Below are positions 3,508-59,879 of a DNA stretch of 64,000 nucleotides, one piece after another; position 1 is the stretch's first letter, and each line of letters starts with the position of its first letter. The notes below the pieces were generated by a model that saw only the letters and a list, made by a program, of their open reading frames with translations, did no database searches and was not told the DNA's origin. Both the position numbers and the translations under genes were made by a program. The stretch is from the NCBI GenBank assembly GCA_964521085.1, contig CAZFPL010000001.1, positions 35,469 through 99,468 of the forward strand, given 5' to 3'. This DNA comes from an uncultured Anaerolineales bacterium (GTDB taxonomy: Bacteria; Chloroflexota; Anaerolineae; Anaerolineales; RBG-16-64-43).

Positions 3508-4497
3508 ATGAAGTGCCGCAAATGCGGGATTCCGGCCGCGATCAACATGCGCCAGCACAAACTGGCGTTGTGCCGTGCGCACTTCCTGGATTGGCTTCCG
3601 GAGCAGACGGAACGGGCGATCGAGCATTATAAAATGTTCGCGCGCGGGGAGAAGATCCTCGTCGCCGTAAGCGGGGGGAAGGATTCGCTCACCCTGTGGG
3701 ATGTGCTGCACCGGCTGGGGTACGCGGTCGACGGACTCTACATCGACCTGGGAGTCGACGAGCGGATCGGATATTCGGCGAAATCTCGCGCGCTGTGCGA
3801 AGGTTTTGCCGCCGCGCACGGGCTGCGGCTGCAGGTGGTCAGCGTGCCGCAGGAATACGGCGCGTCGATCCCCGAGGCGGCGCACCGGACGACGCGGGGC
3901 AAACATAAGCCCTGCTCGGTGTGCGGGCTGGTCAAACGCCATATCATGAACCGGATCTGCCGCGATCAGGAGTATGCCGCCCTGGCGACGGGGCACAACC
4001 TCGATGACGAAGCCGCGGTGCTCATGCACAACGCCATGACCTGGTCCGGGGGGTACCTCGCGCGGCAGTCCCCGGTCCTGCCCGCCACGCGCCCCGGGCT
4101 GGCGCGCAAGGTCAAGCCGTTTTGCCGGATCTACGAGCGCGAAACGGCGGCCTACGCCTTGATGCAAAAGATCGATTACATCTACGAGGAATGCCCGTTC
4201 TCCGAGGGCTCGTCCACGCTCTATTACAAAGACATCCTGAACCGGATCGAGGAAGACCGGCCGGGAGCGAAACTTCAGTTTTATCTTTCGTTCCTGCAAG
4301 CCAAGGACCAGGGTTTGTTCGCCCCCGGCGTATCCGGGGAAACGGACCTGCACGATTGCCCCTCCTGCACCCAGCCGACTTCCGCGCCGGGCAAATGCGC
4401 GTTTTGCAGATTGTGGGAAAGCCTCACCCTTAACTCCCCTTCTCCCGGCATCAGCCGGGAGAAGGGGTTGGGGGATGAGGGGGATAGGAGCATATGA
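3508..4497 (+). CDS. ttuA: tRNA 2-thiolation protein, TtuA/TIGR00269 (PP-loop ATPase) family
   Basis: N-terminal CxxC..C..H zinc finger, SGGKDS PP-loop, CSVC, GHNLDDE, CPF and C-terminal CxxC..CxxC; the last ~20 aa are read from a palindromic repeat. Confidence 0.85.
   Translation: MKCRKCGIPAAINMRQHKLALCRAHFLDWLPEQTERAIEHYKMFARGEKILVAVSGGKDSLTLWDVLHRLGYAVDGLYIDLGVDERIGYSAKSRALCEGFAAAHGLRLQVVSVPQEYGASIPEAAHRTTRGKHKPCSVCGLVKRHIMNRICRDQEYAALATGHNLDDEAAVLMHNAMTWSGGYLARQSPVLPATRPGLARKVKPFCRIYERETAAYALMQKIDYIYEECPFSEGSSTLYYKDILNRIEEDRPGAKLQFYLSFLQAKDQGLFAPGVSGETDLHDCPSCTQPTSAPGKCAFCRLWESLTLNSPSPGISREKGLGDEGDRSI
4422..4480. repeat. CCCCT(C/T)CTCCC-type palindromic element, copy 1
   Basis: CCTCACCC..CCCCTTCTCCCGGC-ATCA-GCCGGGAGAAGGGG..GGGGATGAGG; related copies at 9829, 10980, 14343, 59807. 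Confidence 0.8.
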
Positions 4498-8772: not shown

Positions 8773-9819
8773 TTAGCATATCCTCGGAAGAAGTTCGCCC
8801 GGCAGCATGTCGATGATCCGCGTGCCGCCGATCGCCGTTCGCAGGTGGACGCGATGATGCGGTTCCTCCACCGCATGGCCGATGGCCGCCGCCTCACTCC
8901 CATAAGGATGCGACCGCATCGCCGCGAGAACCGCATCCGCGTCCTTCTTTGCGACGAATGCCGCCAGCTTGCCCTCGTTGGCGACGTACAGCGGATCGAA
9001 GCCGAGCATTTCGCAGGCCGCGCGCACAGGCCCATGCACGGGGATCGCCTGTTCCTCGAGTTCCACCCCGACCTTGGATTGCGCTGCGATTTCCACCAGC
9101 GTCGTCGCCAGACCGCCGCGGGTCGGATCGCGCAGGACGTGCACCTCGCCGGCGGCGACCATCTTCGCGACAAGATCGTTCAAGGGCGCGACGTCGCTCT
9201 TCAGGTCGGTTTCGAATCCCAGTCCTTCGCGCGCCGAAAGGACCGCGATGCCGTGGTCGCCGACCGCGCCGGAGAGCAGCACCACATCGCCGGGCCGGGC
9301 GCCATCCCCGGTTATCTTTACGCCGGGAACGAGCCGGCCGATGCCGGACGTATTAATAAAGAGGCCGTCCGCCTTGCCGCGTTCCACCACCTTTGTATCC
9401 CCCGCCGCCAAATACACGCCCGCTTCGTTGGCCGCTGCGCGGGCGGAGCGCAGGATGCGGTCGAGCGTTTCCAGCGGCAGCCCTTCCTCGAGGATGCAGC
9501 CGATGCTGAGCGCAACCGGCGTGGCGCCGACCATCGCCAAATCGTTGACGGTCCCGCAAACCGCCAGGCGCCCGATATCGCCGCCGGGGAAGAAGAGCGG
9601 CCGGACGACGTAACTGTCGGTGGTGAAGGCAAGACTACCGGCGCTGAATTCGAGGATCGCCGAATCATCAAGCGAACGGGGCGCGGAATCCCCGAGCGCG
9701 GGCAGGATCACCCGCTCGAGCAAGTCGTGACTCAGCCGGCCGCCCGACCCGTGGCCGAGTACCACACGCTCGCCGGGTTGGAGAGGCAGGGGGCAGGAGA
9801 AGGATTCGAAGTTGGGCAT
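8773..9819 (-). CDS. hypE: Hydrogenase maturation carbamoyl dehydratase HypE
   Basis: GHGSGG, TTDSYVVRPLFFPGGDIG, RDPTRGG, ANEG, C-terminal LPRIC. Confidence 0.96.
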   Translation of the reverse strand: MPNFESFSCPLPLQPGERVVLGHGSGGRLSHDLLERVILPALGDSAPRSLDDSAILEFSAGSLAFTTDSYVVRPLFFPGGDIGRLAVCGTVNDLAMVGATPVALSIGCILEEGLPLETLDRILRSARAAANEAGVYLAAGDTKVVERGKADGLFINTSGIGRLVPGVKITGDGARPGDVVLLSGAVGDHGIAVLSAREGLGFETDLKSDVAPLNDLVAKMVAAGEVHVLRDPTRGGLATTLVEIAAQSKVGVELEEQAIPVHGPVRAACEMLGFDPLYVANEGKLAAFVAKKDADAVLAAMRSHPYGSEAAAIGHAVEEPHHRVHLRTAIGGTRIIDMLPGELLPRIC

Positions 9820-9828
9820 GGAAGCTCC

Positions 9829-9888
9829 CCTCACCCCCCATCCCCCTCTCCCGGATTATTCCGGGAGAGGGGGAGCGAGGGGGTGAGG
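9829..9888. repeat. CCCCTCTCCC-type palindromic element, copy 2 (within the hypD 3' end)
   Basis: CCTCACCCCCCATCCCCCTCTCCCGGA-TTAT-TCCGGGAGAGGGGGAGCGAGGGGGTGAGG. Confidence 0.85.
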
Positions 9889-10964
9889 CGATATCTAAAA
9901 TACGCCGCGCAGGCGCCTTCAGCGCTGACCATCGGCGCGCCAAGCGGACAGGTCGGCGTGCATTCTTTTCCAAATGCCGGGCACTCGAGCGGTTTCTTCA
10001 CGCCCTGCAGCACTAGGCCGGCGATGCACAGGGGCGATTCCTTCGGCGCGATTTGCCCCACGTCGAACCGCTTTTCGGCGTCGAAGGGAGCCAGCACATC
10101 GCGCAGTTTCCAGCCGCTGCCGGGGATCACGCCGATCCCGCGCCAGGCGCGGTCGCATTCGACGAAGGCGCGCCCGATCGCATCCTGCGCGGAGCGGTTT
10201 CCCTCGCGCGAGACGGCCCGCGTATACGCGTTTTCCACTTCGTGACGGCCCCTTTCGAGCTGCCGCACCGCGCCTAATAATCCGCGCAGCAGATCCACCG
10301 GCTCGAAGCCGGTGACGACCATCGGCGCGCGGAACCTCGCCGCAAGCGGTTCATATTCCGTGTATCCCATCACCGTGCACACGTGACCGGCGGCCAGGAA
10401 GGCCTGAACGCGGTTGGTCGGGGAGGAGAGGATGGCTTCGATTGCGGGCGGTACGCGGACATGCGAAACCAGCATCGAAAAATTCCTGAGTCCGCGTTCC
10501 CTGGCCTGCAGAACCGTCATCGCGTTGGGCGGCGCGGTGGTTTCGAATCCGATCGCGAAGAAAACAACCTGCCGGTCCGGATTGGCCTCGGCGATCGTCA
10601 GCGCCTCGAGCGGGGAATACACCACGCGTACATCGCCGCCGCGGGCGCGCACGCCGAACAGGTCCTGCCCCGACCCGGGGACGCGCAGCATGTCGCCGAA
10701 CGAGGTGAAGATCACCTCCGGTCGCGAAGCAATCGCGATCGCGCGGTCGATCTGCTCGAGCGGCGTCACGCACACCGGGCAGCCCGGCCCGTGAACCAGT
10801 TCGATCTGCGCGGGGAGCATTCCGTCGAGGCCGTGCCGCAGGAAGGAATGCGTCTGCCCGCCGCAGATCTCCATGATCGTCCACGGTTTGGTCACCGTCC
10901 GCCGGATCTCTTCCAGCAGGGCGGCGGTCGCCTTCGGGTCGCGGTATTCGTCGAGGTATTTCAT
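9831..10964 (-). CDS. hypD: Hydrogenase maturation protein HypD
   Basis: Start [10 protein letters not shown]; [37 protein letters not shown]. Confidence 0.96.
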
Positions 10965-10979
10965 GTTTCTCCGCTGTCC

Positions 10980-11086
10980 TTTCCCCCTTTCCCAGCCTTC
11001 GCCCGGAGGAACACCGGGGCTTCGGCACCCCTCTCCCCCTTCCGGTTTCACGGGAAGGGGGAGAGGGGGAAGGGGCGAGGAGGTTA
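10980..11086. repeat. CCCCTCTCCC-type palindromic element, copy 3 (hypC-hypD spacer)
   Basis: CCCCTCTCCCCCTTCC..GGAAGGGGGAGAGGGG stem plus internal CCCGG-AGGAACA-CCGGG hairpin; abuts the hypC TAA. Confidence 0.8.
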
Positions 11087-11314
11087 GGACAATTCGCCCA
11101 TTTCGCGGAACACCTTCAGCGTCTCCTCGGCTTCGTCGGGAGAAAGCACGTTGAGCGCGAAGCCCGCGTGGACGATCACGTAATCGCCGATCTTCGCTTC
11201 GGGAACGTATGCCAGGCAGGCTTCCTTCACCACGCCGCCGTAATCGATCCGGCCCATGCGCATCGATCCGCTTTCATGGGTATCCAATATTTTTCCAGGC
11301 ACACCAAGGCACAT
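11084..11314 (-). CDS. hypC: Hydrogenase chaperone HypC
   Basis: MCLGVPG N-terminus, [11 protein letters not shown]. Confidence 0.96.
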
Positions 11315-13675
11315 TCAGACCTCCATCATCGCGGCAATCACTGCCTGCCCGAGCGCCAATCCCCCGTCGTTTGTGGGCACGCGGTGGTGAGTGTAAACCT
11401 CGAACCCCGCTTCCCGCAAGGAGCCCGTCGCGAGTTCCAGGAGCAGCGCATTCTGCCACACTCCGCCGGAAAGGACGACCTCGTGGATCCCGCGGCCGGC
11501 CCGGACCGACTCGGCCGCTCGCACCGCGATCGAACGCACCGTGTTGTGGAAGCGGGCTCCGATGCGGGGGGCGGATTCTCCACCCCGCACATCATGGATC
11601 ACCGCATCAAGCAAATCCCGCAGGCGGATGTTTTCCCCGTCGATTTGGAAAGGATACTCGCCCTTCTCGTCCATCCGGCTGCGTGCGAGTTCCTCGAGTT
11701 CGATGGCGCCCTGCGCCTCGTAATCGACCTCGGTGCAAACGCCGCTCAGCGCGGCGACGCAGTCGAACAGCCGCCCCAGGCTTGAGACCGGCGGGGTGTT
11801 CAGGCGGCGTCCCACCTGTGTGCGAACGATCTGCACCTGGCGCGCGGAGACACCGCGCAGAAACGGCAGATCGTCCACCGGCAGGCCGAGAGCCGATGCG
11901 AAGCCGACTGCGATCCGCCACGGATTGCGGGTCGCGGCGTCGCCGCCCGGGAGCGGGAGATATTCCAAATGCAGAACCCGTTCATATCGCCGGTAATCCG
12001 CCGCCAGGATTTCCGCGCCCCAGATTGCGCCATCGGCGCCGTACCCGGTCCCGTCGAAGGCAAGCGCGATCACCGGCTGATCCCCCGCCAGGCCGTTATC
12101 CGCCATGCAGGCGGCCGCATGCGCGTGGTGGTGCTGCACGGCGACGAGCTTGCGCCCGCCGGCATGGTCGCACGCCCAGCGCGTGCCGAGGTATCCGGGA
12201 TGCAGATCATGGGCGATGATCTTCGGCTCGGTATGGAATAGGCGCTGGTAGCGTTCGACCGCCTCCTCGAAGGCGGCGAGTGTTTCCGCGTTTTCCATGT
12301 CGCCGATGTGCGGGCTGAGGAAAGCGTAGCGCCCGCGCGCCAGGCAGAATGCGTTTTTCAATTCGCCGCCGACGGCCAGGATCGGCGGAACGTCGCGCGG
12401 CAGTGAAATCGGCGCGGGTGCATATCCGCGCGATCGGCGCAGGGGTTGTGTTTGTAGGGGCGATCCATGGATCGCCCTCGTTCCCATAGGGAAGACCCGC
12501 ACGACCGAATCATCACAGCGTTGGATGATCTCCCGGTCATGAAGGAGGAACGCGTCCGCCAGCGGCCCGAGCCGCGCGAGCGCCTCATCGTTCCCGATTG
12601 CGATCGGCTCCTCGCTCAGGTTGCCGCTGGTCATCACCAGCGCGGCGGGCGCGGATTCTTGGTCGAGTATCGGATCGCCCTGATGCAGAAGCAGGAGGTG
12701 CAGCGGCGAATAGGGCAGCATCACGCCGAGCGTTCCGTTGGCGGGCGCGACCTCTTCCGCAATCGGACAGGTAGCCCGCCGCCGCAGGATGACGATTGGT
12801 TTCTCCCGCCCGGCCAGCAGTGCGCGCTCAATGTCGTCCATCTCGCAATAGCTTTCCGCCGCGTCCAGGTCGCGGACCATCACGGCGAAGGGTTTGGCGC
12901 TGCGGTGTTTGCGCCTCCGCAGTTCACGGACCGCTTCGGCGTTGACCGCGTCGCACGCCAGGTGGAATCCGCCCATTCCGCGGATGGCCAGGATGCGGCC
13001 TTCGCGCAACAGGCAGCGTGCGGTCAATATTGGTTCATACGGGGATCGGTTTTGTAGGGGCACAGCGTGCTGTGCCCTTTCCGGCAAGGGCACAGCACGC
13101 TGTGCCCCTACCATCCACACCCGCGGCCCGCACGCCTGGCAGGCGACGGGCTGGGCGTCGAATCGGCGGTCGTTTGGATTTTCATATTCCGTTTTGCATT
13201 CCGGGCACATCGCGAACGGCGCCATGCTGGTCCGCGGCCGGTCGTACGGCACATCGCGGATGATCGTCAGGCGCGGACCGCAGTTGGTGCAATTGATGAA
13301 CGGGTAAAGGTAGCGTCGGTCGTCCGGGTCGAGAAGTTCGCGCGCGCAATCGCCGCAAATGGCGATATCCGGCGTGACCGGTTGAAAATCGCCGGGGCGG
13401 GGGACGGAGGCGCGGATCTCGAATGCGGAATACCCGGCTGCCGGGAGGGTCTCCCACTCGAGCGAATCGATGTGCGCCAGGGGCGGTGCTTCGGCGCGCA
13501 GCGCGGCAGTGAACTGATCCAGCTCGGCGGCATCCCCCTCGGCGGTGATCTCGACCGATCCCGAGGTGTTGCATACCCAGCCGCGGATCCCAAGCCGCGC
13601 GGCTAGGTTGTAGACGAACGGCCGGAAGCCGACGCCCTGTACCGTCCCGCTAATGCGGATTCTTCTGGCTTCCAT
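11315..13675 (-). CDS. hypF: Carbamoyltransferase HypF carrying two in-frame REP insertions
   Basis: Acylphosphatase GTVQGVGFRPF, two CxxC zinc fingers, GGFHLACDA, HHHAHA, DGTGYG, NDGGLALGQ. Confidence 0.95.
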   Translation of the reverse strand: MEARRIRISGTVQGVGFRPFVYNLAARLGIRGWVCNTSGSVEITAEGDAAELDQFTAALRAEAPPLAHIDSLEWETLPAAGYSAFEIRASVPRPGDFQPVTPDIAICGDCARELLDPDDRRYLYPFINCTNCGPRLTIIRDVPYDRPRTSMAPFAMCPECKTEYENPNDRRFDAQPVACQACGPRVWMVGAQRAVPLPERAQHAVPLQNRSPYEPILTARCLLREGRILAIRGMGGFHLACDAVNAEAVRELRRRKHRSAKPFAVMVRDLDAAESYCEMDDIERALLAGREKPIVILRRRATCPIAEEVAPANGTLGVMLPYSPLHLLLLHQGDPILDQESAPAALVMTSGNLSEEPIAIGNDEALARLGPLADAFLLHDREIIQRCDDSVVRVFPMGTRAIHGSPLQTQPLRRSRGYAPAPISLPRDVPPILAVGGELKNAFCLARGRYAFLSPHIGDMENAETLAAFEEAVERYQRLFHTEPKIIAHDLHPGYLGTRWACDHAGGRKLVAVQHHHAHAAACMADNGLAGDQPVIALAFDGTGYGADGAIWGAEILAADYRRYERVLHLEYLPLPGGDAATRNPWRIAVGFASALGLPVDDLPFLRGVSARQVQIVRTQVGRRLNTPPVSSLGRLFDCVAALSGVCTEVDYEAQGAIELEELARSRMDEKGEYPFQIDGENIRLRDLLDAVIHDVRGGESAPRIGARFHNTVRSIAVRAAESVRAGRGIHEVVLSGGVWQNALLLELATGSLREAGFEVYTHHRVPTNDGGLALGQAVIAAMMEV
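12454..12478. repeat. GTAG-type REP singlet inside hypF
   Basis: GTAG followed by perfect 20-bp palindrome GGGCGATCCATGGATCGCCC. Confidence 0.75.
13054..13111. repeat. GTAG-type REP doublet (REPIN-like) inside hypF
   Basis: GTAGGGGCACAGCGTGCTGTGCCCT and its exact reverse complement separated by 8 bp. Confidence 0.88.
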
Positions 13676-14324
13676 GCTTCACTTGCCCGACGATCCAATC
13701 CGCAAACGCGGGGAGGCCTTCGCCGGTCCGGCACGAAAGCGGGAAGGAGGCCAGCCCCGGGTTGAGGGCTTCCACGCCGCGGCGGAAGTAATCCATATTG
13801 AAAGGAACATAGGGAAGCAGGTCGGTCTTGTTGATCACCAGCGCCTGCACGCCGCGGTACATGCCGGGATATTTATAGGGTTTGTCGTCGCCTTCGGGGA
13901 TCGATGCGATGAGCAGGTTGAGATGCGTGCCGAGTTTGAACGCGGCCGGACAGACCAGGTTGCCGACGTTCTCCACAATCAGCAAGTCGATTCGCTCGAG
14001 GGGTAGAGAACCGAGCGCGCCGCGGACCATCACCGCGTCCAGGTGGCACTCGCCGCCGGTGTTGATCTGCACCGCCGGGATCCCGGCCGCAGCCGCCTTG
14101 TCGGCGTCGATCGATCCGGCCAGGTCGCCCTCGATCACGCCCAGCCGCAGGCGGCCTTGCAGCGCTTCGAGAGTCGCCAGGATCAGGCTGGTCTTCCCCG
14201 CACCGGGTGATGCCATCAGGTTGACGGCAAACACGCCGGCCGCATCCAAGGTGGCGCGATTTTCCTCGGCGACCTTGTCGTTGGCGGAAAGAATGTTTTC
14301 GACGATCGGGACGGTTTGCGGCAT
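13650..14324 (-). CDS. hypB: Hydrogenase nickel incorporation GTPase HypB
   Basis: Start MPQTVPIVENIL; SPGAGKT, CHLDA, ENVGNLVCPA, EGDDKP, NKTD. Confidence 0.96.
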   Translation of the reverse strand: MPQTVPIVENILSANDKVAEENRATLDAAGVFAVNLMASPGAGKTSLILATLEALQGRLRLGVIEGDLAGSIDADKAAAAGIPAVQINTGGECHLDAVMVRGALGSLPLERIDLLIVENVGNLVCPAAFKLGTHLNLLIASIPEGDDKPYKYPGMYRGVQALVINKTDLLPYVPFNMDYFRRGVEALNPGLASFPLSCRTGEGLPAFADWIVGQVKHGSQKNPH

Positions 14325-14342
14325 GATGATCCTTATCTGTCC

Positions 14343-14450
14343 TAACCCCCTCACCCCGCCTTCGCTCCGGAAGAGCACCGGAGCTTGCGGCACCCCTCTC
14401 CCCCTTCCCCTTATGGGGAAGGGGGAGAGGGGCAGGGGGAGCGGGGGTTA
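14343..14450. repeat. CCCCTCTCCC-type palindromic element, copy 4 (hypA-hypB spacer)
   Basis: Termini TAACCCCC...GGGGGTTA; core stem with TTAT loop; internal GCTCCGG-AAGAGCA-CCGGAGC hairpin. Confidence 0.85.
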
Positions 14451-14795
14451 GGATGGTTCAACCTCGATGCTCTCCACGGTCATCTCATCGCCGGCGATGA
14501 TCCGGAAGCGTTCGGATCGGCACTTCGGGCAGGCGAAGGAATCCTTGGGAAGTGCGAATTCGGTCGCGCAATCCAGGCACAGCGCGCGCGCCGGAACGCG
14601 TTCAAAGCGCAGTTCGGCCTTCTCGGCGATCGTATCCGCGGCGATCAGGTCCCAGTAGAAGCGGATCGAATCGTCGACCAGGCTCGAAAGCTGGCCGAGT
14701 TTGATCGTGATCGCGCTCACCCGGCCGGCGTTGGCCCGCCCGGCATGATCGAGCGTGATCCGTAAAATACTTTCGGTGACGGCCATCTCGTGCAT
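14448..14795 (-). CDS. hypA: Hydrogenase maturation nickel chaperone HypA
   Basis: MHE N-terminus, CLDC and CPKC zinc site, GDEM.VESIEV. Confidence 0.96.
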   Translation of the reverse strand: MHEMAVTESILRITLDHAGRANAGRVSAITIKLGQLSSLVDDSIRFYWDLIAADTIAEKAELRFERVPARALCLDCATEFALPKDSFACPKCRSERFRIIAGDEMTVESIEVEPS

Positions 14796-15221
14796 AATAA
14801 TTCGGACAAATTATATCAGATAATTAGAGGAGGGGAAACAAGTAGTATGCGGATTTTCGTAGGGAGTGGAAGCACATATTAGCGAGGACGAAAAACTATG
14901 GACAATACACAATTTACGAGGTGCCATCCAGAAAAAACCTATGTAATTTATTGGATAAAAGGCTGGAATAAGTATGGAATGAGGTTTAATGTAAAATCAT
15001 GAGCCATATTGGATTGGGCGAACGTGCTGCTGGTCTATTCTTGTTGAGGGATTATCGAAAAAGAATGGCGCGGAGTTTGCAGGAATAATCGGTTGGTTGA
15101 TATCTTCCTGGACGGGGCGTTATGGACGAGCGTAATTTGGAAATTGCGGGTGGAAGACCGGGCTTGAAACTTGCTTCCGATAACAAACGTAAACGACATC
15201 ATATGCAAGGAGGAATGGAAA

Positions 15222-15677
15222 ATGGAATCCGGGGATATTCGATCCATTATTCAGGAAAACCGGAAGGAGCACGAGCGTCTCCGGCGGCTTGTCGACCGGC
15301 TGACGGATGCCGAACTCCGGCGTTCCATGGATGCGGGCTGGACGGTCGCCGCGACGCTGGCGCATCTTGCGTTTTGGGATACGCGCGCCATCCTGTTGAT
15401 CGAAAAATGGAAGCGCGAGGGGATCGGACCCTCGCCCGCGGATACGGACATCATTAACGATTCGGCACGGGAATTATGCATGGCGATACCGCCGGAAGCG
15501 TCGGCCGATCTGGCGGTGGAAAAATCACTCGCCATCAACCGGGTGATAGAAAGCCTTACGCCCGAAATGATGGAACAAATTCAAACCACCGGCACGGCGG
15601 TCCATTTAACGCGATTCGAACACAAACGGATGCATCGGGAAGATATCGAACGAATTCTAGGGAAGGAGAGGGAATGA
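15222..15677 (+). CDS. DinB/mycothiol-dependent maleylpyruvate isomerase N-terminal-like protein
   Basis: GWTVAATLAHLAFWD and H..HREDI motifs; AGGAGG SD 8 nt before the ATG at 15222. Confidence 0.75.
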   Translation: MESGDIRSIIQENRKEHERLRRLVDRLTDAELRRSMDAGWTVAATLAHLAFWDTRAILLIEKWKREGIGPSPADTDIINDSARELCMAIPPEASADLAVEKSLAINRVIESLTPEMMEQIQTTGTAVHLTRFEHKRMHREDIERILGKERE

Positions 15678-18073
15678 ACCGAAGTCGATTTTTTACGACA
15701 TCGATCTGCCTCGCAGCATTTTTTCTGATGAACGGGTTTTGTCCGCCTTCCGCAGCGGAAGCCGGAGGAACGGCTGCTGTGCGGAATGCAAATGACGGAT
15801 CGCACGCTTTATTGGGCGATATCACGGCTATCGCGGCGGGAGGGTTTCACACCTGCGCGCTCACCACGGGCGGCGGAGTCAAATGCTGGGGCCCCGTTGG
15901 AGTAAATGGCATTCCGAAGGGCGAGACCGAGAAAATAGCAAGCAACGTGGCGGAAGATGTGCCCGGTCTCGGTAGCGGCATTACGGCGATCACGGCCGGG
16001 AGGAATCATACCTGCGCGCTCACCGCCGGCGGCGGGGTCAAATGCTGGGGCGCCAATGGGTTCGGCGAATTGGGAAACGGTCCGCACGAAGGCTCCCGCT
16101 GGCCGGTGGAAGTGACCGGGCTTTCGAGCGGAGTGAAAGCCATTGCGGCCGGAGGGGATCATACTTGCGCGCTCACGTCTCAGGGGGGAGTCAAATGCTG
16201 GGGCGAGAATCAATCCGGCGAGTTGGGGGTGAGCAGGAGTGTTTCCCATAACACGCCGGTGGATGTCGTCGGCATGGAAAGCGGTGTCGCGGCGATTGCG
16301 GCCGGGGATATTCACAACTGCACGCTCACCACCGGCGGCGGGGTCAAATGCTGGGGCGCGAACAGCGACGGCCGTCTTGGCGATGGCACGACCGAGGATT
16401 CGTACCAGCCGGTGGATGTGGTCGGCTTGGAAAGCGGTGTCACGGCGATTGCGGCCGGCTTTTCAACCATGTGCGCGGTCACCACTGCCGGCGGCTTGAA
16501 ATGCTGGGGAATGGAAACCGTAGGCTTACCCGGCAATCCCATTCCCGGGATTCACAATATACCCACGGATGTACCGGGGTTGGAAAACGGCATTCTTGCG
16601 GTCGCCATGAACTATGGAACCATCTGCGTACTTGGGAAAAGCGGCGGGGTCAAATGCTGGGGGAGGAATCCATACCAAAAAACGATCGAGACGCCCATGG
16701 ATATCAAAGGATTGACGAGCGGTGTCGCCGCGATCGCTTCGGGAGACCGCCATACGTGCGCGGTTACGAAGGATGGAGGGGTTAAATGCTGGGGGGATAA
16801 TACCTACGACCAGCTGGGGAACGGCACGACCGGGGATACCCGAGAGCTCACGCCGGTAGATGTTCGTGGATTTGCGGAACCCGTTTCCGGGATCGTTCTC
16901 GGCGTGGCGCATACCTGCGTGATTGCGAAGGATGGGAACGTGCAATGCGTGGGGGCCAACTGGTCCGGCCAGCTGGGCGACGGCACGACCGAGGAACACA
17001 CCATGCCGGTGAAGGCGGTCGGTTTGGGAAGCGGCGTCCGGCAAGTGACGGCCGGATACGATTTCACCTGCGCGCTGACGGCGTATTGGGCGGTCAAATG
17101 CTGGGGCGAAAATGAGAATGGCCAGCTGGGGGATGGATCGCTTGCGGACCAACATATACCGGTGGATGTGGACCGTATGTCCCATGGGATCTGGAGTATA
17201 GCCGCCGGCGCAAGCCACGCCTGCGCGCTCACGGATCAGGGGGAAGTCGAATGCTGGGGGGATAACTATCAAGGCCAGCTGGGGGATGGGACTACCATCA
17301 GCGCCAGCCATCCGCTGAAAATAAAGGAACTCGCCTCCGGCGTGCAGGCGATTACGGCCGGGATGCGTCACACCTGCGCTCTCATGCCGGCCCGCGGCGT
17401 CAAATGCTGGGGCGGAAACGATTACGGCCAGCTTGGCGATGGAACAAACATACAGCGGGCAACACCTGTGGATGTGGCGGGTTTACAGGAGCCTGTCACG
17501 GCGATTGCCGCAGGGCCCGATTTTACCTGCGCGCTCACCTCTTCCGGGGGAGTCAAATGCTGGGGTGCCAATCGGGATGGAGAACTCGGCGATGGGACAT
17601 TCACTTCCCGCAGCCTGCCGGTGGATGTGACCGGCCTTGCAGGCAGTGTGAACGCGATCGCCGCCGGATACAGTCACGCTTGTGCGCTGACGGCGGACGG
17701 CGGGGTCGAATGCTGGGGGCGCAATGCGGACGGCCAATTGGGCGATGGCACCATCGAAAACCGGAACACGGCGGTCGAAGTGTTCGGATTAACGAGCGGC
17801 ATTGTAAAAATCGCGGCCGGGGGAGCGCACACCTGCGCCATTACGAAAAACGGAGGAGTTAAATGCTGGGGATCTATTGACTATGGCAGAGACGACATGA
17901 GCATGGGCGAACCGACGGGTGTGTTGGACGGTCCGATCCAGCCCATTCCGTCAGTGCTGCTGATCGCAACAGGCATCCTGGCCGTGGTGATTGTTTTCCT
18001 TGGGGTGCTTCTTTTCCTGTGGAGAAGAAAGGCTCCCACGAGCGGCGCCAAGCCCGCCAAAGTTGCTTCCTGA
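15674..18073 (+). CDS. RCC1/BLIP-II-like repeat surface protein (two propellers, signal peptide, C-terminal TM anchor)
   Basis: About 14 repeats of AG..HTCALT..GGVKCWG.N..GQLG; N-terminal signal ending AEA; C-terminal hydrophobic helix followed by RRK. Confidence 0.88.
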   Translation: MNRSRFFTTSICLAAFFLMNGFCPPSAAEAGGTAAVRNANDGSHALLGDITAIAAGGFHTCALTTGGGVKCWGPVGVNGIPKGETEKIASNVAEDVPGLGSGITAITAGRNHTCALTAGGGVKCWGANGFGELGNGPHEGSRWPVEVTGLSSGVKAIAAGGDHTCALTSQGGVKCWGENQSGELGVSRSVSHNTPVDVVGMESGVAAIAAGDIHNCTLTTGGGVKCWGANSDGRLGDGTTEDSYQPVDVVGLESGVTAIAAGFSTMCAVTTAGGLKCWGMETVGLPGNPIPGIHNIPTDVPGLENGILAVAMNYGTICVLGKSGGVKCWGRNPYQKTIETPMDIKGLTSGVAAIASGDRHTCAVTKDGGVKCWGDNTYDQLGNGTTGDTRELTPVDVRGFAEPVSGIVLGVAHTCVIAKDGNVQCVGANWSGQLGDGTTEEHTMPVKAVGLGSGVRQVTAGYDFTCALTAYWAVKCWGENENGQLGDGSLADQHIPVDVDRMSHGIWSIAAGASHACALTDQGEVECWGDNYQGQLGDGTTISASHPLKIKELASGVQAITAGMRHTCALMPARGVKCWGGNDYGQLGDGTNIQRATPVDVAGLQEPVTAIAAGPDFTCALTSSGGVKCWGANRDGELGDGTFTSRSLPVDVTGLAGSVNAIAAGYSHACALTADGGVECWGRNADGQLGDGTIENRNTAVEVFGLTSGIVKIAAGGAHTCAITKNGGVKCWGSIDYGRDDMSMGEPTGVLDGPIQPIPSVLLIATGILAVVIVFLGVLLFLWRRKAPTSGAKPAKVAS

Positions 18074-59806: not shown

Positions 59807-59879
59807 CCCTCATCCTGTCGGAAGACCACCGACTCCCTTCTCCCAGCTTATGCTGGGAGAAGGGTTGGGGATGAGGGGG

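Follow-up and report, generated by a model that had tools for sequence, protein, structure and literature searches.

Repetitive extragenic palindromes (REPs) with a GTAG foot can lie inside genes. A survey by Di Nocera, De Gregorio & Rocco (2013, BMC Genomics 14:522, PMC3733652) describes them within known genes both singly and as dimers; over half of the intragenic copies are dimers or groups coding for 20 to 30 amino acids, a gene sometimes carries two insertions, linkers or loops are proposed as their positions, and the phyla concerned include Chloroflexi and Cyanobacteria. For subclass 2.4 of the REP-linked transposases (TnpA_REP), Quentin et al. (2018, BMC Genomics 19:475, PMC6006769) described the protein motifs NH[IFV]H, WQ, and YIxNNP. 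The associated REPs have a stem base of three G-C pairs, and their double-foot forms start with GT[AG]G and finish with C[TC]AC; the authors predicted that double-foot REPs come from central deletion of an inverted dimer and found REPs in frame in genes, notably in tnpA_REP itself. A REPIN (REP doublet forming a hairpin) is the proposed replicative unit, mobilized in trans by a single-copy REP-associated tyrosine transposase, or RAYT (Bertels & Rainey 2011, PLoS Genet 7:e1002132, PMC3116915). Here we describe an inverted pair of GTAG REPs inside hypF, the gene for carbamoyltransferase HypF, in a 64,000-nt stretch of DNA from an uncultured Anaerolineales bacterium (contig CAZFPL010000001.1), called the window below. 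An original prediction had taken the pair for a recent REPIN-like insertion. Our analysis suggests that the 58-nt element is probably an in-frame inverted dimer of GTAG-type (subclass-2.4-type) REPs in a flexible, disordered HypF linker that was colonized long ago and later remodeled.

All coordinates are those of the whole window; L labels denote loci, P labels HypF orthologues, and X labels metagenome runs. The pair consists of two copies of GTAGGGGCACAGCGTGCTGTGCCCT in opposite orientations, identical at every position and separated by the 8-nt spacer TTCCGGCA (Table 1), so the two exact 25-bp inverted copies, 8 bp apart, of the original prediction were confirmed. These were the only two copies of GTAGGGGCACAGCGTGCTGTGCCCT in the 64 kb in a search tolerating 3 mismatches. 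The stem is longer than first reported, with 26 contiguous base pairs closing a 6-nt loop, while each unit alone forms a 9-bp hairpin with GTAG outermost. Folding energies were -58.5 kcal/mol for the 58-nt sense-strand RNA, -70.7 kcal/mol (z = -9.5) for a 98-nt RNA segment with the pair, and -36.7 kcal/mol (z = -11.3) for a 78-nt DNA segment. Inverted REPs, a short spacer, and a single long hairpin give the pair the architecture of a REPIN. A third GTAG hairpin in hypF, overlooked in the original prediction, reads GTAGGGGCGATCCATGGATCGCCCT and has a stability of -14.7 kcal/mol. All three units have the form GTAG plus GGGC-N5-N2-N5'-GCCC with stems of 9 to 10 bp, that is, GTAG at one end of a GC-rich imperfect palindrome in the 20- to 40-bp range typical of GTAG REPs. 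The GT[AG]G foot, the three G-C pairs at the stem base (here GGG/CCC), and the existence of double-foot forms are those of subclass 2.4.

Other identities were considered for the pair and rejected: a clustered regularly interspaced short palindromic repeat, as there is no array; a terminator, as the element lies inside an open reading frame (ORF) and has no T-run; and a chance palindrome, as 0 of 100 dinucleotide-preserving shuffles matched the pair and z is about -10. An Rfam scan of 11000-15000 with an E-value threshold found no known RNA family, just sub-threshold matches to generic miRNA-precursor hairpins. Within the hypF ORF, the predicted 26-bp transcript hairpin may slow translation or form a substrate for a double-strand RNase (RNase III-type), which we offer as speculation.

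The host gene is intact and looks functional. Its ORF scores 764 bits on TIGR00143 hypF (cut-off, 466), an alignment with the solved HypF structures 3vth and 4g9i covers the whole protein, and the acylphosphatase domain, both zinc-finger motifs, and the YrdC-like and Kae1-like domains that mark HypF proteins are all present; hypB, hypC, hypD, and hypE adjoin it on the same strand. The pair is translated as VGAQRAVPLPERAQHAVPLQ, residues 189-208 (V189-Q208), directly past the last CxxC of zinc finger 2 (C179, C182) and ahead of the YrdC-like domain. The original prediction of a GTAG-type REP pair in frame in the linker after the zinc fingers is supported; it gave the span as about 189-207. The third unit is also in frame, in the linker between the YrdC-like and Kae1-like domains, where its peptide is flanked by the conserved motifs DDSVVR and RRSRGY. 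We refer to the two places as site 1 and site 2, respectively. Residues of the window HypF left unmatched by 3vth and 4g9i fall precisely at both. In an AlphaFold2 model built from a 38-sequence alignment (mean predicted local distance difference test [pLDDT] score, 78; predicted template modeling score, 0.71), residues 192-208 and 397-419 have pLDDT values of <50 and form coil between well-predicted domains. The REP-derived peptide is most likely a neutral loop.

The REP unit of site 1 is widely dispersed. At least 120 JGI/ENA metagenome contigs contain its exact 24-mer GTAGGGGCACAGCGTGCTGTGCCC; their flanks are unrelated and range from 30 to 70% G+C, so it must be present in many different hosts. 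The 24-mer also occurs in 7 viral-collection contigs, and four unrelated metagenomes share a 31-mer of the right-hand unit, with flanks that differ on both sides. Of the 120 copies listed, 104 lie outside any long ORF, which makes the family mainly extragenic and places the hypF copies in its known intragenic minority. Many of these copies face a second, inverted REP whose stem is identical or related (e.g., GGGCACGGCGCGCCGTGCCCCTAC), and many end in CCCCTAC and are double-foot forms. REP pairs with other spacers were seen at L138 and in contigs of runs X3 and X7. No second pair with the TTCCGGCA spacing was found in the window, the 120 listed metagenome loci, or the read index, so the pair does not behave as a REPIN replicating unit in these data. 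A read-index search with the bare 60-nt element (3 words sampled) returned only other loci sharing the right-hand 31-mer, and a full-text literature search for GTAGGGGC returned nothing but unrelated primers.

The same unit can be read as protein almost regardless of frame. Five of its six frames lack a stop (VGAQRAVP, RGTACCA, GHSTLCPY, GTARCAP, and AQHAVPL), and only the G/TAG frame stops. In other organisms GTAGGGGCACAGCGTGCTGTGCCC lies in frame in five Pfam-verified proteins: an APH-family kinase, a UvrD helicase (past the UvrD_C domain), a CobB/CbiA amidotransferase (between CbiA and GATase_3), a DUF7948/SBBP protein (between domains), and a hybrid histidine kinase (L189:1882-4161, minus strand). 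In the histidine kinase, an in-frame array of four REP-like units (RGTASRAP, KGTARRAH, and KGTARCAPT twice) separates HisKA_2 from the part of HATPase_c that was matched, and two of the units are exact repeats.

Two wider observations concern related repeats. A scan of genome contigs used a pattern with a 3-nt center (NNN), and as the window unit has a 2-nt center, its matches serve as context only. They form a sister family of 29-nt double-foot palindromes, GTAGGGGCACAGC-NNN-GCTGTGCCCCTAC (L001-L120), which is frequent in Nostoc, Calothrix, Scytonema, Stigonema, and Leptolyngbya, with further members in Chloroflexus, Anaerolineae, Acidobacteriota, Latescibacterota, and Gemmatimonadaceae; several phyla thus have essentially one REP stem sequence in common. 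At many metagenome loci (L134, L171, L172, L184, L198, L216, L218, L228, L233, and others), a REP or a REP pair is centered in a longer conserved palindrome, TATAGCGATTGCCAAAAGTTTTTTCCGAT ... GAAATTACTTTGGGCAACCCCTAT. This composite nested repeat resembles the GTAG-15 dimers of A. variabilis inside long palindromes described in Di Nocera 2013 (PMC3733652).

RAYT-like genes accompany the dispersed unit. A gene for a RAYT-like protein of about 180 to 200 aa is present in 7 of the 120 listed GTAGGGGCACAGCGTGCTGTGCCC loci (706 kb) and at L025, of the sister family. The proteins have the motifs VMPNH[FI]HG, WQRxYYE, and YIxNNP, and the REP either adjoins the gene or is in frame within it; in L126, L129, L147, L226, L229, and L025 it is read as RGTACCAP, GTARRAPT, or GTARCAPT after VMPNHxHG. 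Strict HuH/Y motif expressions picked up no RAYT anywhere; detection took the looser WQRxYYE motif and a small profile. All three proteins tested (L147, L126, and L226) exceed the Pfam cut-off of PF01797 (Y1_Tnp). One RAYT-like gene per roughly 100 kb at these loci far exceeds the 1 to 2 such transposase genes per genome of Quentin 2018 (PMC6006769), and from these frequencies we infer a REP-RAYT association. Both the usual extragenic position and the RAYT link of GTAG REPs, which the original prediction took as given, agree with these counts. Judged by sequence, the GTAGGGGCACAGCGTGCTGTGCCC-linked transposases and their in-frame REP inserts match TnpA_REP subclass 2.4 (Bertels group 4), and the link of the hypF pair to this subclass runs through those loci of other organisms that carry the identical REP.

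We compared the window HypF with its 120 best database homologues and with orthologue DNA from five relatives. All of the roughly 33 closest proteins (70 to 82% identity; Anaerolineales where the source names them) have length-variable sequence at both sites. Most carry REP peptides (VGAQRAISVRAQRAVPLQ, GARHASPLQ, GAQHAAPLQ, RAIHGSPLQ, and VGAHGGAPVQ), up to four consecutively; the orthologues have 1 to 4 units, and their linkers span 26 to 70 aa at one site and 12 to 60 aa at the other. In distant homologues (≤64% identity), the linkers shrink to as few as 31 to 33 and 11 to 13 residues, and the motif was never seen in these distant members of the set; this insert-free comparison uses protein alignments and PDB sequences, and the insert-free orthologues include P0035 and P0037. 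The original prediction would have failed had the sequence been unique in the genome and conserved as protein in distant HypF orthologues; its absence from distant orthologues leaves the prediction unrefuted on this count.

At the DNA level, the five orthologues hold 1 to 3 GGGC...GCCC palindromes per site, each nearly perfect, with different upper stems (ACAGC, GAGGC, GCAGC, GGACG, GTACA, and others). The right junction of site 1, CCCCTAC/AA, recurs in P0004 and P0006 and is degenerate in P0002 and P0003 (CTGC/AA and ATAC/AA). P0004, from an independent assembly, has a homologous, decayed 52-nt pair at site 1, and P0006 has a double-foot REP form in hypF. In an alignment of six orthologous site-1 units, pairing holds in 98% of cells and 5 of 5 variable pairs changed on both sides, with one G-U intermediate, in P0004; 0 of 500 shuffles reached the observed values. 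As four-fold degenerate sites of these hypF genes are just 58 to 72% identical, youth alone cannot account for the palindromes. The six hypF genes contain 13 REP-type hairpins in 14 kb, versus 1 GTAG-footed hairpin in 109 kb of flanks. That one, GTAGGGGCGCATGGCCATGCGCCCCTAC, is a double-foot GTAG REP between hypD and hypE of the relative encoding P0007 (L245 13788-13819) and is the sole GTAG REP outside hypF in the flanks examined. At site 2 of the P0002 hypF (L243, ~1526-1557), both feet are altered symmetrically, from GTAG to GCAG and from CTAC to CTGC, yielding the perfect 32-nt palindrome CTGCAGGGGCACGGCATGCCGTGCCCCTGCAG; the symmetry hints at palindrome-templated correction. Related palindromes at both sites of the 70 to 82% orthologues, the decayed pair of P0004, and the absence of such palindromes farther out together argue that REP colonization of hypF is old.

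The present state of the pair is another matter. A 1951-nt contig of X2, a soil metagenome, corresponds to 12300-13373 apart from two substitutions in 1044 nt and a 30-nt gap at 13069. It retains GTAGGGGCACAGCGTGCTGTGCCCCTAC, a single double-foot REP of 28 nt that keeps the reading frame with ten codons fewer, which suggests that the pair itself is a young, variable state. The 30-nt difference fits deletion from a dimer better than insertion, since it lies between two 9-nt direct repeats and the spacer sequence is foreign to the singlet. Read from its sequence, the X2 allele is the putative dimer-to-double-foot conversion predicted by Quentin 2018 (PMC6006769). Perfect symmetry had been read by the original prediction as a recent insertion into the gene. 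The orthologue palindromes, P0004 among them, speak against that part, whereas the X2 allele upholds a young state of the element.

The history that we consider probable would begin with a clade ancestor that acquired REPs in two permissive linkers. Arrival would have been by single-strand cleavage and joining at GTAG by a RAYT/TnpA_REP, and only frame-keeping insertions would have survived, with five stop-free frames and a V-G-A-x-x-x-x-P-L peptide tolerated as a loop. REP units would later have been gained and lost at both sites, and both stem arms may change together via palindrome-templated correction or replacement by other REP variants. Slippage between the 9-nt repeats GCTGTGCCC at the hairpin base would convert a dimer into a double-foot REP. 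The perfect symmetry of the window pair and its identity to a widespread "master" REP would then reflect recent turnover, homogenization, or replacement rather than first arrival.

Several observations weigh against this history. No RAYT was found in the 64-kb window, either by motif scans or by hmmsearch of its 708 stop-to-stop ORFs of at least 50 aa, as the original prediction had stated; the hmmsearch profile was built from four RAYT-like proteins, and its sole match was the REP itself, read in antisense (E = 0.026). The L147 protein, the sole one run against NCBIfam, had as its best match NF047646 (REP-associated tyrosine transposase), with 59 bits under an 80-bit equivalog cut-off. Neither REP type recurs in the window's other 61.6 kb, which hold no other GTAG-GGGC hairpin, and 40 kb flanking hypF in two relatives holds only one GTAG REP. 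Given this scarcity, the genome neighborhoods look REP-poor and hypF looks like a retention hot spot; an active REP pool in this genome is hypothetical. The type of the site-2 unit had 0 matches in 1.59 Mb of other loci or in viral contigs, and its 21-mer AGGGCGATCCATGGATCGCCC is identical in 4 orthologues while the flanking linker codons vary. Such identity in genes with 58 to 72% four-fold identity, combined with the lack of copies elsewhere, fits hairpin selection better than mobility. Evidence for the X2 allele comes from an assembled contig and not from reads, and no public Logan contig covers 13058-13087, where the center of the pair is documented by the window assembly and by the homologous pair of P0004.

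The site-2 unit, identical in 4 orthologues and found nowhere else, is what gives weight to an alternative that we consider unlikely but serious: whatever their origin, the hypF palindromes would be no longer mobile, exapted as gene-specific structures and kept by selection on a nucleic-acid hairpin, with compensatory change in place. They could act as a translational pause at domain boundaries that aids co-translational folding or as a signal for mRNA processing or stability in the hyp operon. Both sites are indeed domain boundaries and are occupied clade-wide at synonymous saturation, with very stable hairpins (-58.5 and -14.7 kcal/mol) at a density about 100 times higher within hypF than in the 109 kb of flanks. 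Every variable stem pair covaries, down to the G-U intermediate of P0004, but palindrome-templated repair or REP replacement gives equal covariation without function. The number (1 to 4), length, and sequence of units also vary widely among orthologues, which resembles drift more than a tuned signal; a near-identical strain does without half of the element at site 1; the unit at that site has the exact sequence of a widely dispersed REP with RAYT partners; and more distant HypF proteins, the solved ones included, have no insert. Conservation at site 2 would fit selection on the hairpin or an unseen pool of the site-2 REP in these genomes. The two hypF linkers are REP hot spots long kept by the clade in otherwise REP-poor neighborhoods, with conservation at the nucleotide level at site 2 and strict covariation of stems at site 1. 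A related idea, to which we give little credence, is that their hairpins are exapted as pause or processing signals at the domain boundaries of this multi-domain maturase or that resident REPs act as homing targets. If the homing version were true, a coding site would be repeatedly overwritten by new REP variants, a form of concerted linker evolution via a domesticated transposase.

In the original prediction, a RAYT would have newly placed a complete REPIN in a hypF site that was empty before in this lineage. The perfect 26-bp symmetry, the match to the dispersed "master" REP, and the polymorphism of the pair between near-identical genomes are what such an insertion would leave. The site, though, is occupied in orthologues of 78 to 82% identity with the same right junction, the decayed pair of P0004 included, and the alternative X2 allele holds a single REP rather than an empty site. 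With a 30-nt difference that fits deletion better, as described above, and no identical dimer with the TTCCGGCA spacer elsewhere in the listed metagenome loci or read index, we regard a fresh insertion as improbable. That the pair is a mis-assembly at a palindrome whose true form is a single 28-nt REP is very hard to credit: the Logan contigs of X1, the best-matching run, do end at 13057 and restart at 13088, leaving 13058-13087 uncovered publicly, and X2 has only the singlet, but a depth of ~4-5x is low enough for contigs to break at so strong a hairpin, a singlet could not have given rise to the spacer, the window contig runs into correct hypF on both sides with the frame kept, and P0004, assembled independently, has a homologous 52-nt pair at the site.

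Table 1. Positions of the REP units, the host operon, and a second hairpin family (window coordinates unless a locus is named)
Feature	Position	Strand	Description
Inverted REP dimer (REPIN-like pair)	13054..13111	.	58 nt, near-perfect palindrome; GTAG/CTAC feet outermost; codes HypF 189-208
Left REP unit	13054..13078	+	GTAG + GGGCACAGC-GT-GCTGTGCCC + T
Spacer TTCCGGCA	13079..13086	.	In the long hairpin T13079 pairs with A13086; 13080-13085 form the 6-nt loop
Right REP unit	13087..13111	-	Exact inverted copy of left unit; outer junction CCCCTAC/AA on sense strand
30 nt missing from near-identical X2 contig	13069..13098	.	Between two 9-nt direct repeats GCTGTGCCC
Third REP unit, singlet	12454..12478	+	GTAG + GGGCGATCC-AT-GGATCGCCC + T; codes RAIHGSPLQ, residues 400-408
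hypF, carbamoyltransferase HypF	11315..13675	-	786 aa, every domain present
hypB (CobW/HypB/UreG GTPase domain)	13650..14393	-	Upstream operon neighbor; listed ORF start probably too far upstream
hypC	11084..11314	-	
hypD	9831..11051	-	Listed ORF probably overlong at 5' end
hypE (AIRS and AIRS_C domains)	8773..9834	-	
Polypyrimidine/polypurine hairpins	4436-4467, 9841-9874, 11027-11069, 14393-14432, 59835-59864		
Polypyrimidine/polypurine hairpins, relatives	L122 12603-12634 and 13825-13866; L121 3662-3693		

The window also carries a second, unrelated family of hairpin repeats without a GTAG foot. Each has a polypyrimidine and a polypurine arm (consensus CCCCTCTCCCCCTTCC..GGAAGGGGGAGAGGGG) and a stem of 13 to 18 bp (Table 1). 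Three copies stand at hyp gene boundaries, namely, upstream of hypB, in the hypC-hypD gap, and at the hypD/hypE junction; similar hairpins lie in the hypC-hypD and hypD-hypE gaps of L122, and a related one lies inside the called 3' end of hypC in L121, at the boundary with the next gene. On the strand opposite the hyp genes, 15476-18073 (plus strand) encodes an 865-aa ORF of RCC1/RCC1-like-domain repeats with 12 RCC1_2 stretches; some 1.1 kb separates it from the start listed for the hypB ORF (14393). Within hypF itself, many unrelated metagenome contigs match ~40 nt at 12600-12640 at 90 to 95% identity and diverge beyond, with match depth peaking at up to 53 in run X7; this stretch is probably the highly conserved VMTSGN-coding motif of many HypF genes and not a repeat.

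Intragenic in-frame GTAG REP dimers are already published, and the hypF case is a further example. Its value is that of a case study and lies in the two-site hot spot traced through a clade, together with the dimer-to-double-foot allele. That such insertions offer a route to new peptides, as the original prediction suggested, is a reasonable idea, but one described before (Di Nocera 2013; Quentin 2018). Established knowledge of REPs, RAYTs, and HypF is unchanged. The locus is a clean natural example of selfish palindromes turning into protein: one 24-nt REP, which lands in loops, supplies linker residues to HypF, UvrD, CobB, a kinase, and a histidine kinase in bacteria that are unrelated to each other. 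To this hypF adds a time axis of colonization, expansion, decay, compensated stems, and dimer collapse, along which REP turnover in coding DNA becomes measurable. As a practical matter, VGAxxxxPL, RGTAxxAPT, and GHSxLCPY can flag REP-derived segments in annotated proteins.

Selfish palindromes in functional genes that add surface peptide have reportedly been found as the Rickettsia palindromic elements of Ogata et al. 2000 and the in-frame Coxiella miniature inverted-repeat transposable elements (MITEs) of Wachter et al. 2018. These elements are longer, lack a GTAG foot, and have no known RAYT partner, so the likeness to hypF is by analogy only. Rickettsia palindromic elements and classical MITEs measure 70 to 300 bp and have terminal inverted repeats, whereas the hypF element is 58 nt long and consists of 25-nt GTAG hairpins without separate terminal repeats.

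REPINs of Pseudomonas are longer and extragenic, with spacers of tens of nucleotides and many copies at a fixed spacing. The hypF pair differs in its 8-nt spacer, its intragenic position, and the lack of a second copy with the TTCCGGCA spacer in the listed loci, the window, and the read index. As in REPIN-RAYT systems, an inverted REP pair folds into one hairpin (Bertels & Rainey 2011, PMC3116915). Closer still are the subclass-2.4 REPs, whose foot, stem base, double-foot forms, in-frame inserts, and transposase motifs were all seen at related loci; unlike in those systems, no tnpA_REP was found near the hypF copy or elsewhere in the 64-kb window. In the part of Di Nocera 2013 available to us, the host genes belong mainly to replication and repair (Opitutus, Thauera, Thioalkalivibrio, and others), and hypF was not noticed among them. 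The survey follows no single site across orthologues and gives no dimer/singlet alleles; the hypF case has both.

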